Below are positions 27,861-40,708 of a stretch of DNA of 64,000 bases, in pieces. The position numbers were made by a program, and so were the translations under genes. Position 1 is the first letter of the stretch; the number at the start of each line of letters is the position of its first letter. A model generated the notes under the pieces. That model saw nothing but the letters and a program-made list of their open reading frames with translations, made no database searches and was not told the origin of the DNA. Source of the DNA: Candidatus Latescibacterota bacterium (GTDB lineage: Bacteria; Latescibacterota; UBA2968); the NCBI GenBank assembly GCA_965205975.1, contig OZ242195.1, positions 2,048,001-2,112,000 of the forward strand, given 5' to 3'.

Positions 27861-29411
27861 ATGAAACTTACCAACATCAACACCACCGACATCACCGACG
27901 CAATCCGCCTGGGCTGCCGAATGATGAGCAATGTCTTCAACGCGGACGACAACGACAGGCCCTTCTTCGGTTCCGAAGTCAGACCGAACCCGCAATTGCG
28001 GTTCAGTGGCGTCCACTCCGAGTCCCACGTGCCCGGCCGACACCTCAACGCATTGCTCAACGCCGAAGACGCGGGCAACATATCTGTGGATCCCGATGCA
28101 ATTGAAAAACACGCCAACGCCGCCTTCTTCTCCTACAGCGGCCCGATCGCGCTACCCCTCAACCGCACGGAGATCGATGGACCGGTCAACAGCTTCACGA
28201 CCCACAACGTGCGCGAAGGCTTCCACGCTCTGTACTCGCTGGTCAAATACAGAAATTCTGATCGTGCGCGCGAAATCGCCGAAAACAGCATCCACGACAT
28301 ATTCGAGCTATTCAAACCGGATTCGGGTTGGGACTTCAATCGCCTTGAGAAAGAGTACGGCATAGAAGTGCGCGAGAACACCTTCATCACCGGACTTGCG
28401 CGATCAATCGGTCCCCTCGTCAAATACTACCGCGCCACAGGCTATGGACCTGCGCTCGAACTCGCCGTAATCCTGAAAGAAAAAACGACCCGCGAATTCT
28501 TCCTCGAATCGGGTGCTTACGACCGCGAAAGCTTTGGACCGCATACCCATTCGACAACCTGCGTCATGTCTTCGCTCGCACAACTCGCAGACCTTCTCGA
28601 TGACGCGCAATTGCTCAACCGGGTCAAGACATTTTACGATAACGGACTGTGGGAAATCCGCGATGAAATTGGATGGGTAATTGAAAATAGTGGAGATGAT
28701 GCGAGTCCCGATCGCGGAGAGATCAACAACACGGGCGATATTGTCGAAACAGCCCTGATTCTGGGCAGAAAGGGATATACCGAATACTTCGAAGACGCCG
28801 AGTGCATCACGCGATGTCACATATTGCCCTCGCAATTGCGCGACAACAGCTTCATCAAAGACCCGCCGAACCCGCACAACATAGACGGACTTCGCCAGGT
28901 CGCAGACCGGCATCTCGGCGGCTTTGGCTTCCCCGCACCTTATGGTCACGCGCCCCTCGGCTTTGAGCGAATCAGCTTCAATACAGACATCGTAGGCGGA
29001 GGTGTCGGCTCACTCTGCGAAGTCCTGCGCGAAGCCGTACGCACCGAATCCTCAATTCACCGGGTGAATCTCCATTTCGACCTCGAAACCGAACATATCA
29101 AAGTCGAATCACCCTACACCAATAACTGCCTGAGAATCACCGTCAAATCCCCCGGTCCCCTGTATGTCCGCATCCCGACCTGGGTCAATCCGTCCGATAT
29201 CGCCGTCGCCGAACGCTCCACGTACTCCAATGGCTATCTCTTAATCTCCGAACCCCAGATCAACACCCCCATCGAAATACGCTTTCCCCTCGCCGAGCGC
29301 GAAATCGTATTGAAACACCGCACGCGAGACATCAGGGTGCTCCTGAAAGGAGACTCAGTCCTCGCAATGGAAAATCACGGCGCTGACCTGACCTATTTCG
29401 ATCCTCTATAG
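27861..29411 (+). CDS. Hypothetical cytoplasmic protein resembling (alpha/alpha)6 glycoside hydrolases (GH127-like architecture)
   Basis: No signal peptide; HTHS, GEINNTGD, and a C-terminal VNLHFD...LYVRIPTW...IRFPL beta-sandwich pattern. Confidence 0.55.
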   Translation: MKLTNINTTDITDAIRLGCRMMSNVFNADDNDRPFFGSEVRPNPQLRFSGVHSESHVPGRHLNALLNAEDAGNISVDPDAIEKHANAAFFSYSGPIALPLNRTEIDGPVNSFTTHNVREGFHALYSLVKYRNSDRAREIAENSIHDIFELFKPDSGWDFNRLEKEYGIEVRENTFITGLARSIGPLVKYYRATGYGPALELAVILKEKTTREFFLESGAYDRESFGPHTHSTTCVMSSLAQLADLLDDAQLLNRVKTFYDNGLWEIRDEIGWVIENSGDDASPDRGEINNTGDIVETALILGRKGYTEYFEDAECITRCHILPSQLRDNSFIKDPPNPHNIDGLRQVADRHLGGFGFPAPYGHAPLGFERISFNTDIVGGGVGSLCEVLREAVRTESSIHRVNLHFDLETEHIKVESPYTNNCLRITVKSPGPLYVRIPTWVNPSDIAVAERSTYSNGYLLISEPQINTPIEIRFPLAEREIVLKHRTRDIRVLLKGDSVLAMENHGADLTYFDPL

Positions 29412-39600: not shown

Positions 39601-40708
39601 CGCAACTAAACGCCGCGGCTTCCATGTGCCCCACGTTGCTCTTGACGCTGGCGACTCGTAATGGCAACGCGCGACCATTACCACCGAACGCCTCTGCAAT
39701 GGCATTTCCTTCAATGCGATCACCCACCACAGTGCCAGTGGCATGGGCTTCGATATAGTCGAATTCCTGTGGCGCATGCCCCGCACGGGCGCACGCTGTA
39801 CGCATCAATTCAGCCTGTGCGTGACGGGTGGGTGCGGTAATGTAGCGCCCCTGCGCCAGACCATCGGTGCCGTCGGCTGCACCGGCCGCATTGACCGCGG
39901 TTGCCTCCACCACGGCGTAGATGGGGTCCCCATCTCTTTCGGCCGCCGCCAGAGGCTTGATCGCAAAAACGAACGCCCCTTCCGAACGCATATATCCATT
40001 GGCTTCTGCGTCGAAGGAGTGGCACTTGCCATCCGGGCTGATCACACCCAGCGCATTGAAGGAAGCACTCACCCTGGCTGTACCCAGGTAATTGACGGAT
40101 CCGACGAGAGCTTGTTCACAATCGCCGCACCGGAGTGCGTTCATCGCCGCGTGCAATGCGGTCAGACTGGCGGAGCAGGCCGTACAATAGGTGGTTGACT
40201 GTCCCATCAAATTGAAGTGATAGGAAATGCGATTGGCCAGCATAGCCAGACTGATGCTTGTAACGTCAAACTGACTGGCACCATGCACAGGACGCCAGTT
40301 GGCGACCGGCGGAATCTGTGCGCCGATGAAGACACCTGTGGGACTGTTGCGCAAAGAATGAAGATCCCATCCTGTCCACTCACAGGTCTCCCAGGTACAC
40401 GTCAACAACATCCTAACCTGCGGATCCGTTGCCATCATTTCGTTGTGAGACAATCCGAAGAGGCTGCGATCAAAGAACATCTCCCCATCCTCTCGAATCA
40501 GCCCTTCGTAGGGACTGGCAAAGCGCCCTGGCCCAGAAAATTCACCAATCGGTTGGTAGCCCTTACCGTACCGGTCGGTTACGGGTTCCTGAACAATCTC
40601 GCGTTCGCTAAGCAGCCGCCAAAAATCGTCATCGGTGCGGATTCCGCCCGGCATGCGATAACTGTACCCCACAATGGCAACTGCATCTTCGGACTTTGGT
40701 GAATTCAT
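33698..40708 (-). CDS. swfA: Mono-modular, fully reducing type I PKS/FAS: KS-AT-DH-(pseudo-MT)-ER-KR-ACP
   Basis: KS TACSAS/EAHATGT/KSNVGH; AT GHSSG and IAFHS; DH DHRVHHAAIMP and LFDGGLQ; ER LIHSAMGGVG; KR TGGLGGFG, AGILDD, NYGAA; ACP FGLTSI. The partner genes match the swf cluster known from sponge metagenomes. Confidence 0.9.
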   Translation of the reverse strand: MNSPKSEDAVAIVGYSYRMPGGIRTDDDFWRLLSEREIVQEPVTDRYGKGYQPIGEFSGPGRFASPYEGLIREDGEMFFDRSLFGLSHNEMMATDPQVRMLLTCTWETCEWTGWDLHSLRNSPTGVFIGAQIPPVANWRPVHGASQFDVTSISLAMLANRISYHFNLMGQSTTYCTACSASLTALHAAMNALRCGDCEQALVGSVNYLGTARVSASFNALGVISPDGKCHSFDAEANGYMRSEGAFVFAIKPLAAAERDGDPIYAVVEATAVNAAGAADGTDGLAQGRYITAPTRHAQAELMRTACARAGHAPQEFDYIEAHATGTVVGDRIEGNAIAEAFGGNGRALPLRVASVKSNVGHMEAAAFSCALLKVILMMQRRTFAPISKNFLVPNPEIDFDSCPMQVQTTCEPFPEHPVVVGINSFGFGGANGHCVVREYRPSQPRTWSMALAPEAGFMIPLSARTSGALEQSARQLRKTLDEQEMDLYTLAGNLSRRRTHFVTRTSFSVHTQKELIEALKSFEEDPTPVTTTDEGERRIAMVFSGQGTQWAGCGRALYDADPVFRRVIDAVEEHWREYSDISLREACFSAEQEALNEVQLAQPVIFMIQCALVELYKTWGVYPDCVVGHSSGEVAAAYACGALSLAEATHLVFHRATLQQRTAGSGRMLAIGLDRPGVEELLKTLRVPFRPEEGPTQVEIACENAPASTVICGKETALQPIREELDRRNLQNGLIPGNIAFHSSAMDPIKDDALSALSFLKDCTFDAEVPLISSVTGVKTEQLDSAYWWSNIRQPVRFAAAMETIMRDYRPDVVLEIAPHGALQTTIAQCLESSVPVPVCIPTLIRDSDVCLGFNEALGALFRVGVDLDFATQYPRPEPIVHLLPGHPREEQAMIDIMCDNEMFVRQGEYSHGPLVGRRVPCDYILFEARLSERDFPYLADHRVHHAAIMPGAGYIELILEAFGGVPIHIEVLEFLQPCPIPKTPVRLQTALHPVANAPDEFTFTISSRPYDIEAQSELHCRGKVRRVSGDYAVDVPVQLADIDTTRFERSFLADDRDFYERLEAVLSETFQYGPFFRTIQRVRLDLESEKSFLVEVEMDEELWKTGTGEGYVSCPPLFDGGLQIFLYNLLTAADLFAIPQRAEYLTFLRPPTGPRITCHVTKPDEDWMDANERGQFSVRRGERSGGSISFYDSATGDLIAHIGKYTYFTSNPQWADLPHSKHRVSWQPKFIPTGQSLVDRLPAGEIGPAALIAALEQPKRGESYVCHVVEFAGCREPDQTILNQCIDYLSNADAQTEFWIVSDDEDSTRACYDAFQQHDAALRFECMDPDARPELDAGLLRPGAAEIIFLHGDGDTFGLDEWQFLHGLVVAGGLALVCHDEGDVIEPCAGWSTVRAGTRTTLLQASYGDASDTMELPGPRWVLGEPDSWAADWESLIDAPEVYSISHETLVNGVLEQWPQAADVQAIDFFCGMDPEDPTGEKVSAQFIDFVQTLVSQRIEQANHPCRLTVVTHRAAFNVEDPRGSALWGAVRSMSIEVDEEAMIDFRLVDLGDPEDLETLAWLSRCDLRERELAVRQRRLWAPRMVSMQERYSRVSSDSEPAYRLTLDNPGQISGLEMKTYEPSALGPGDVEIEVTAAALNFRDVMVTLGLLPALAYERSALGREVGMEGSGIVRRAGSAVRYCRVGDEVAFIQSGCIANRVVVNEHLVFVKPDCLSMEEAASSLSVYVTAYYSLIHLARLRKGQRVLIHSAMGGVGQAAIALAKHVGAEIYTTAGNESKREQLLVLGARAAFDSHSHDWYDDLMEATSGEGVDVVLNSLSGRHIELCLEALRPGGWHCEIGKVDIYEDNELGLRVFRKNLRFAAIDVDRLMIDDPLLSREISQACLELLDQGALPSLPVTLFPYKDYTKALRFMTTGQHQGKLVLTAPQASANSGFTVADVRPLLDPNGTYLVTGGLGGFGLRLLPYLVASGARHITLMDRDPERRRDAEWIRQSSALAYMSDDVEFDILSGDVSVEEDVQRCIAQLKRPLKGVFHLAGILDDRLLVDMTTQSVAEVFAPKAHGALYLHRATRGCDLDHFVLFSSTASTLGNPGQINYGAASAFLDGLAANRRRRGLPALCYNMAAVADAGMAARSLHVLRIMRAAGMPAISSDCAIANLDYAMRSMADQDHLVTVLFKRPPWTVDFPDYMRIGRFMSNQDAFAVDAVGELTLDNVVAQIAAKVAELCGHDEGGVEEPLSSFGLTSISVAELGTFIQSQFNYRVSALELMTTASCLSLAQGIIHGKENIEDDLVEEDTDDLEDAIRVVQQRVRRAPSVFANAIEDHFPQGNSVA

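Follow-up and report, generated by a model that had tools for sequence, protein, structure and literature searches.

Polyketide synthases (PKSs) of the swf type are one of two PKS types that are widespread in sponge microbiomes, and the question of their product has been open since 2013. They were defined by the gene set swfA, swfB and swfC together with signature motifs in the ketosynthase (KS) and acyltransferase (AT) domains of SwfA (Della Sala et al., 2013, PMC3908369; this and the other papers given by PMC number are drawn on as far as the available parts of them go). We analyzed a stretch of 64,000 nucleotides, called the window below, from the genome of a Candidatus Latescibacterota bacterium (contig OZ242195.1, positions 2,048,001 to 2,112,000), which carries a cluster with this gene set. 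The cluster is intact and almost certainly belongs, as a new member, to the known swf family.

The 2013 authors themselves proposed a possibly methylated alkyl sulfate as the swf product, read the AT motifs as malonyl-type and allowed an optional use of the reductive domains, and their tree put SwfC among the methyltransferases, closest to HpnP (PMC3908369). The acyl carrier protein (ACP) of a swf homologue was phosphopantetheinylated by Svp, and expression of the whole swf region in Escherichia coli with a phosphopantetheinyl transferase (PPTase; Svp/Sfp) and 5-10 nM B12 gave no new compound (PMC3908369). A SwfA clade was likewise recovered in PMC9864124. No paper naming the swf product was found in the literature searched, which leaves out most subscription journals, and within that literature an earlier note on this DNA was right to call the metabolite unidentified.

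The sup group (SupA), like swf, comprises mono-modular reducing type I PKSs of sponge symbionts. The sup-type PKSs differ from swf in having an internal methyltransferase (MT) as well as a further KS-AT; alongside them, no reductase-sulfotransferase was seen. The sup label of the loci in this study rests on what we take to be the SupA architecture (internal MT, trailing KS-AT).

Membership of the swf Family

The earlier note had read the cluster as swf-type, and its gene set, its domain order and every published swf signature motif bore this out. SwfA of the window contained all five KS signatures (DPQ[I/V]R, HATGT, triple D, EATAVN and NGHCVVR) and all of the AT signatures (FSGQGTQW, QCALVEL, GHSSGE and IAFH). 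Its KS grouped with SwfB-linked PKSs in a supported clade of 32 members, outside which lay five other modular KSs and the sup-type KS domains; the latter were 35-36% identical to the window KS and formed a separate clade. The KS trees were built with FastTree, a PKS being labelled swf by its linkage to SwfB; JX946307, JX946308 and WcbR/RkpA lay outside these trees. The sup traits were missing from SwfA, in which Pfam gave a single KS-AT and no MT match, the second PKS of the same genome having one.

The window was likened to the 2013 swf clusters through published sizes, gene order and motifs; none of the 2013 type sequences occurred by name among the 120 SwfA matches listed. The clusters POR_0547-0550, PS11G3 (JX946307) and PSA11D7 (JX946308) have the same three genes, domain order and listed motifs as the window (PMC3908369). 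The proteins are of similar size: 2336 aa against 2349 and 2361 aa for SwfA, 835 against 839 and 832 aa for SwfB, and 571 against 585 aa for SwfC (PMC3908369). The gene order A-C-B is common to the window and POR_0547-0550, and the 2013 tables list upstream of PS11G3 a STAS gene and a 92-aa hypothetical gene, which are similar to genes of the window and were not treated as cluster members (PMC3908369). Unlike the 2013 clusters, that of the window comes with its full chromosomal surroundings in a Latescibacterota genome, with a tandem pair of STAS genes and with congeners in which the empty site is defined.

Relatives of the cluster were also found in sequencing runs. Six of the 22 listed runs were DNA-type sponge-metagenome runs from three studies, which held 25-35% of the sampled words. 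An 8-kb contig from one sponge run (X5) aligned to 35171-41678 with 327 differences. This shows that the sponge runs point to a close relative in sponge and not to the source of the window genome. Contigs from three RNA libraries covered relatives of the cluster and of the flanking genes too, for which DNA carry-over is possible.

Organization of the Cluster

The features of the cluster region are as follows.

29406..31913, minus strand: swfB, thioester reductase (R; aa 54-371) fused to a sulfotransferase (ST; aa 504-820) of the 3'-phosphoadenosine 5'-phosphosulfate (PAPS) type, 835 aa (Pfam thioester reductase and Sulfotransfer_3; NCBIfam)
31944..33659, minus strand: swfC, cobalamin-dependent radical SAM enzyme, 571 aa (Pfam B12-binding, radical SAM, DUF4070)
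33698..40708, minus strand: swfA, mono-modular reducing type I PKS/fatty acid synthase (FAS), 2336 aa (Pfam, NCBIfam, swf signature motifs, KS tree)
Domains of SwfA in aa: KS ~8-440, AT 542-866, dehydratase (DH) ~914-1210, enoyl reductase (ER) ~1608-1928, ketoreductase (KR) 1951-2130, ACP 2221-2280
40953..41237, minus strand: 94-aa all-helical orphan (locus survey; structure model)
41299..41637, minus strand: STAS1, STAS-domain protein of the anti-anti-sigma type, 112 aa (Pfam STAS)
41773..42114, minus strand: STAS2, STAS-domain protein, 113 aa (Pfam STAS)
29411..41766, no strand: variable block STAS1-orphan-swfA-swfC-swfB, ~12.35 kb, missing at this position from those swf-free congeners that were examined

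The earlier note was accurate on three co-oriented genes with gaps under 40 bp (38 bp between swfA and swfC, 30 bp between swfC and swfB, all on the minus strand), on the intact domain motifs, checked here by Pfam and motif searches, and on the lack of a PPTase within the cluster. Its extent of 29406..40708 holds for the three genes but not for the upstream end, where the cluster reaches ~1 kb further to include a STAS gene and the orphan; likewise its gene set of PKS, radical SAM enzyme and reductase-sulfotransferase stands, whereas the order is A-C-B and not that of swfA/B/C. A Shine-Dalgarno-like sequence preceded the start codon of each of swfA, swfC and swfB. A scan of 40600-42400 gave no terminators. 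It gave two promoter-like sites where 2.9 would be expected, neither of them on the strand of the cluster genes.

The catalytic and cofactor motifs were present: KS Cys-His-His, AT Ser, DH His and Asp, KR Lys and Tyr, ACP Ser, the nucleotide-binding loops of ER, KR and R, the YxxxK of R, the PAPS loop of the sulfotransferase and the CxxxCxxC of SwfC. One scan of species-representative genomes yielded 38 swfB loci, which after length filters gave alignments of 32 SwfA, 36 SwfB and 31 SwfC sequences, window copies included. The motifs were conserved throughout these sets, with GHSSGE and IAFHS in all 32 SwfA and CxxxCxxC in all 31 SwfC. The region of SwfA at aa ~1220-1600, in which no MT match was seen, is interpreted as a structural pseudo-MT/pseudo-KR. 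Pfam detected no thioesterase family in swfA, swfC or swfB. Among sequences of the PDB, SwfB matched the MxaA reductase 4u7w (E 1e-33) and 2zq5 (E 1.5e-37); the latter is presumably a mycobacterial sulfotransferase, an identity for which the literature search gave no confirmation. SwfC had two weak PDB matches (best E 4e-10) and scored under every NCBIfam cut-off.

Host Genome and Supply Genes

The host genome was a single contig of 5.56 Mb, 98% complete. In a comparison of five genomes, its RpoB was 94% identical to that of the genome with locus L008 (record title Candidatus Latescibacterota), 68-69% identical to those of two other Latescibacterota records, and 52-56% (best segment) to those of a Gammaproteobacterium and a Nitrospirales. 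L008 and the window shared 17.4 kb of continuous DNA at 92.5% identity, flanks included, and their SwfA proteins were 95% identical. We assign the host to the Latescibacterota because of these RpoB identities and this continuous DNA. The earlier note expected the chromosomal context to permit such an assignment, which the RpoB identities support, but the advance that it claimed does not hold, since Latescibacterota hosts were published in 2022. The swf host was called unresolved in 2014 (PMC4245539), and swf-like clusters were later placed in metagenome-assembled genomes (MAGs) of Latescibacterota, Nitrospirota and Acidobacteriota (Loureiro et al., 2022, PMC9426513) and in Tectomicrobia (Peters et al., 2023, PMC10227082), where they were described as independent of taxonomy (PMC9426513, PMC10227082). 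Beyond these hosts, the record titles of loci in this study name Gemmatimonadota, Gamma- and Alphaproteobacteria, Opitutales and Syntrophobacterales, though the titles were chosen by the submitters and may in some cases be wrong.

No PPTase was found by Pfam among the 44 window ORFs scanned, which is accounted for by an Sfp-size PPTase of 243 aa encoded elsewhere in the genome. Genes for ATP sulfurylase and adenosine 5'-phosphosulfate (APS) kinase were also found elsewhere in it. A fatty acyl-CoA reductase-like gene (NAD_binding_4 and Sterile; L057 228-3788) lay near core fatty-acid synthesis genes of the same genome and is a possible second source of fatty alcohol in the host.

The host has a second PKS, of the sup type, with the order KS-AT-DH-MT-ER-KR-ACP-KS-AT (L055 6190-16223; G000:C1 ~4206200-4216200). 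It was split into two ORFs within the MT region, its final AT was short, and a permease and an alpha/beta hydrolase flanked it; the split PKS is a pseudogene or an assembly error. A stand-alone swfC paralogue of 611 aa, 38% identical and with the same three domains, was found with no PKS nearby (L056 6603-8438; G000:C1 5472602-5474437). Genome G041 also has a stand-alone swfC paralogue (41% identical).

SwfA-SwfB Fusions and Linked Genes

Among the 120 longer matches listed, 26 matched SwfA as well as SwfB, and in 13 of these the match extended over almost the full length of the two proteins. By record name, the sources included a Williamsia sp. MAG (P0235), a Streptosporangiaceae MAG (P0239) and the haptophyte Chrysochromulina tobinii (P0364, KOO30472). 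These single-chain fusions resembled swf in the order KS-AT-DH-ER-KR-ACP-R-ST and in the HATGT and xxFHS motifs, with 38-59% identity to SwfA and 30-50% to SwfB, and their KS domains formed one clade with the swf KSs (46 rows, support 99). They differed from swf in being one polypeptide and in having GHSAGE instead of GHSSGE. No match to swfC, STAS or the orphan was found at the five metagenome fusion loci examined, all of which were short. No characterized SwfA-SwfB fusion was found in the literature searched. Coccidian FASs ending in R-ST were pointed out in PMC3908369, and the haptophyte review PMC7073580, in its available part, gives no description of a KS-to-ST fusion architecture. The fusions tie the R-ST pair to the ACP-bound chain.

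In nine of the ten Nitrospirales loci, a CysNC-like gene (APS kinase, E 1e-70) followed swfB on the same strand; its GTPase P-loop was altered in several copies. It came from a clustering of the neighbors in the 38 loci, which was cluttered by shadow ORFs, and among the families so obtained it was the one examined further. One fused locus was followed by an MMPL lipid exporter gene, and L115 has a similar ORF.

Proposed Product

We lean moderately towards a primary alkyl sulfate as the swf product, made by iterative chain synthesis, reductive release and O-sulfation. As judged from the anatomy, a trans-encoded Sfp-type PPTase would prime the ACP of SwfA, which would then iteratively build a saturated acyl chain from malonyl-CoA. 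The reductase of SwfB would free the chain from the ACP with NAD(P)H as a primary alcohol, a step for which the support is good, and the fused sulfotransferase would move the sulfuryl group from PAPS to the hydroxyl, so that an anionic lipid, a primary alkyl sulfate, results. In an optional step, the least certain of all, SwfC may methylate an unactivated carbon with S-adenosylmethionine and scavenged cobalamin.

Reductive release followed by sulfation was argued for by the fusions, by the MxaA-like reductase in a system without thioesterase, by the CysNC-like gene and by the MMPL exporter. The terminal reductase of MxaA is sequence kin of the SwfB R domain and yields a primary alcohol, but MxaA has no sulfotransferase. 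As in swf, a sulfotransferase stands at the PKS terminus in CurM of curacin (PMC3908369); there, sulfation of a beta-hydroxyl is followed by the action of a thioesterase, which swf does not have.

SwfC was present in 30 of the 38 loci, in the order A-C-B in 19 and A-B-C in 11; the loci without it comprised five with full flanks, two on short contigs and one deleted copy. SwfC decorates the chain rather than builds it, and methylation is optional, because swfC was missing from those five full-flank loci. The pathway of the earlier note is plausible and is the one put forward by the 2013 authors, but its methyl-branched product is weaker than claimed, for the same reason and for the narrow range of confirmed methyltransferases given below. 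If SwfC acts on this chain, what it makes is probably a methyl branch. The B12-binding, radical SAM and DUF4070 architecture is common to the window SwfC, HpnP and uncharacterized HpnP-like proteins, and among the DUF4070-type HpnP-like proteins methyltransferase activity was confirmed only within the HpnP clade (PMC10697835). A hopanoid is an unlikely substrate of SwfC because no match to the squalene-hopene cyclase model TIGR01507 was found in the host genome, a weak control as none of the 14 control genomes passed its cut-off.

Several points weighed against an alkyl sulfate made in this way. Expression in E. coli with a PPTase and B12 gave no product, and alkyl sulfates of this kind are not known as widespread in sponges according to PMC3908369. 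The former weighs weakly because the expression was aerobic, with 3 h of induction and no stated PAPS boost, and the liquid chromatography (LC) started from 70% acetonitrile (PMC3908369), a condition under which an alkyl sulfate of medium chain length could leave the column close to the void. Saturation of the chain is not guaranteed, as iterative PKSs can skip reductive steps. The full-flank loci without swfC belong here too. The cobalamin synthase CobS had no match in the 98%-complete host genome, in which other B12-binding proteins were present, and SwfC would therefore depend on cobalamin uptake. The CysNC-like gene was absent from the window, its copy in L011 had no match to the APS-kinase P-loop, and its link to swfB counts as one event because it concerns one lineage at one site.

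Three other explanations were considered for the chemistry. The first places the sulfate on an in-chain hydroxyl: SwfA would skip one dehydration, the sulfotransferase would act on the resulting secondary alcohol, either while it is bound to the ACP or after it has left, and the reductase would release an aldehyde or an alcohol, giving a sulfated diol-type lipid. The optional use of reductive domains and the known sulfation of an ACP-bound hydroxyl in curacin (PMC3908369) agree with this, as does the fact that no catalytic domain of SwfA is less conserved than DH (median identity 0.68 vs. 0.83 for KS). The DH His/Asp and the ER motifs were nevertheless intact across 32 sequences, and R precedes ST in SwfB and in the fusions, the reverse of the order that sulfation on the ACP followed by release would be expected to use. 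We consider an in-chain sulfate unlikely.

In the second explanation, to which we give somewhat less credence, the alkyl sulfate is an activated intermediate. The sulfate would leave while a head group is alkylated to an ether or amine lipid, or during alkene formation, so that the end product is free of sulfur, and this would explain why alkyl sulfates have gone unseen. Sulfation as activation has a precedent in curacin, and negative-mode LC-mass spectrometry saw no product, although the gradient began at 70% acetonitrile (PMC3908369) and could have missed a medium-chain alkyl sulfate. No enzyme of alkyl transfer or elimination recurred in the 38 loci, where STAS/orphan and the CysNC-like gene were the only shared families identified outside swfA/B/C, and swf lacks a curacin-style thioesterase.

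The third gives SwfC another radical chemistry, such as closing a ring or joining chains through a C-C bond, or lets the reductase stop at the aldehyde; host enzymes would turn this into an amine, on which N-sulfation would follow. The chance of this appears slim. Although SwfC stayed under all NCBIfam cut-offs, cobalamin radical SAM enzymes also perform ring contractions, oxidations and cyclizations (PMC13459092), and HpnP-like proteins beyond the HpnP clade are uncharacterized (PMC10697835), the 2013 tree has SwfC with the methyltransferases, nearest to HpnP (PMC3908369), and no aminotransferase was identified among the families recurring in the 38 loci.

STAS and Orphan Genes

The orphan was found at 29 of the 38 swf loci, a count that covers just ~1 kb of upstream flank for the A-C-B loci, and in 33 of the 38 swf genomes, being absent from five. 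Its model (pLDDT 82) had three helices; no Pfam family, no usable Atlas match and no Foldseek match in the PDB at E 0.001 were found for it. The family is small, with 88 representatives in 1.84 billion, at least one of which (P0028) was a repetitive false match. Orphan and STAS were fused in three Acidobacteriota loci and in 24 of the 30 orphan representatives of at least 140 aa. The orphan occurred as tandem duplicates upstream of swfA in the Nitrospirales loci L004, L010, L013 and L015; P0027 and P0031 had two orphan domains each, and in P0068 the orphan-STAS order was reversed. Matched by size and position, and not by sequence, it is probably the homologue of POR_0546 of the 2013 paper.

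Ser56 of STAS1 was invariant in 35 aligned sequences, and we take it to be the residue that is phosphorylated in anti-anti-sigma factors. Prediction of a STAS1-orphan complex scored 0.42, against 0.02 for the best of three controls, with at least 85% contact agreement between runs and a partner pLDDT of at least 75. Of 157 solved complexes 116 attained the mark applied, as did 2 of 215 mismatches; those that attained it with a score of 0.60 or below were both mismatches but only 18 of the solved complexes. The model thus weakly suggests that STAS1 may bind the orphan, which was likely beforehand because fusions of the two exist.

A restriction of the orphan to swf was considered and rejected, as 14 of 15 genomes of genus g6 had the orphan and full-length swfB was found in none of the 13 searched. 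At all five g6 loci examined, the STAS/orphan pair preceded a permease, a hydrolase and a SupA-like PKS. Six swf-bearing genomes had extra copies of the orphan away from swf, one of them adjoining a permease. Most likely the two proteins form a small complex, common to swf and sup-type loci, that serves in regulation or scaffolding and not in catalysis. A regulatory role is the simplest reading because the anti-anti-sigma Ser appears invariant. In E. coli, the STAS domain of YchM binds a carrier protein. A literature search on STAS/anti-sigma with supA and sponge found nothing further relevant. A lack of STAS and orphan genes as the cause of the 2013 expression failure was also rejected: the construct spanned fosmid positions 22091 to 37813 and by its primer coordinates took in the STAS gene as well as POR_0546, and the expression was supplied with B12 (PMC3908369).

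Distribution, Transfer, and Variable Block

A quick SwfB tree of 35 of the 38 loci, from eight phyla by record title, needed 12 label changes, where the minimum was 7. It grouped the window copy with L008 and the gammaproteobacterial L001 (SH-aLRT 98). The DNA of L001 was 86.5% identical to the window over 11.3 kb and lay on the same contig as its rpoB; because of this, transfer of swf across phyla, in either direction, appears well supported. SwfC of L009, L014, L021 and L024 was 86-89% identical to that of the window and SwfA 73-75%, which suggests that swfC may have been exchanged between clusters. Two tandem swf clusters, each with its own STAS and orphan, were seen in a Longimicrobiales (L026 1150-22442), the second SwfA falling in a different subclade. 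A collapsed swf was found in L036 (8949-10846), with the start of swfA joined to the end of swfB and, upstream, a frameshifted STAS and an intact orphan.

Full-length swfB occurred in two of 41 related genomes, the window host (G000) and G009. Three of six congener regions joined window positions 29410 and 41767 across ~12 bp, and the other three resumed near 42200; the variable block is therefore 29411-41766. In 7 of 13 congener loci a lone STAS2, which grouped with the window STAS2 at SH-aLRT 99, came after the flanking gene. The gene flanking swfB was found in 15 of 21 genus members. It extends over 27861-29411 (516 aa), had no Pfam or NCBIfam match and was 89-95% identical in 14 of 20 congeners; its stop overlaps that of swfB and marks the left end of the block. 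The flanking gene of G009 was 89% identical to that of the window, vs. 92-95% for swf-free congeners, and an old gain with repeated loss therefore fits at least as well as a recent insertion. Base composition as a sign of recent arrival was rejected, as the GC3 of 0.61-0.65 was within the 5-95% range of the genome (0.45-0.68).

That the cluster is mobile cargo, silent or decaying in its host, is very improbable: swfB is rare among the relatives, the cluster adjoins a fragmented type I restriction system, the sup-type PKS of the host is split and the relative L036 retains only the cluster ends, but all ORFs were full length with intact motifs and ribosome-binding sites, SwfA was 95% identical to the L008 copy, and the sponge-metagenome contigs showed no standout frameshift in cluster genes among the indels listed.

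The restriction-modification locus at 42206-49757 had hsdR in pieces and an hsdS, with hsdM unseen among the scanned ORFs. It also held an inserted Schlafen/AlbA-HATPase-HTH gene and a DUF7380/DUF4209 gene, and congeners carried different cargo at this site. Elsewhere in the window, two HepT-like genes were found at 6351-7107 and 17027-17819; a similar-sized ORF lay upstream of the first, and a nucleotidyltransferase upstream of the second (MNT-HEPN toxin-antitoxin type). Two DUF6785/DUF6784 membrane-type genes lay at 15033-16985 and 53116-55056.

Significance

The window copy neither settles the swf product nor newly identifies the host phylum. The alkyl-sulfate idea and the failed E. coli expression were already in print in 2013 and the Latescibacterota host in 2022. 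What is added here is the block 29411-41766 with STAS1 and the orphan, the fusions, the CysNC-like link, the cross-phylum DNA copy and the optional nature of SwfC. Easier testing is offered by the natural SwfA-SwfB fusions, one of them from a named alga, which need no radical SAM step, and also by the PAPS-supply gene linked to swfB, the exact block boundaries and the STAS/orphan module common to swf and sup-type loci.

A wider view can be put forward tentatively, and we think it rather doubtful as a whole. The swf clusters may be the sponge branch of a broader, so far unrecognized route to alkyl-sulfate lipids, which in actinobacteria and a haptophyte would be carried by a single KS-to-sulfotransferase polypeptide. 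In sponges it would be passed among many symbiont phyla, and a STAS/orphan switch would co-regulate it with sup as part of a shared surface-lipid code for life inside the sponge. If this wider route is true, the swf product would become directly testable through a one-gene fusion from an alga that can be cultured.

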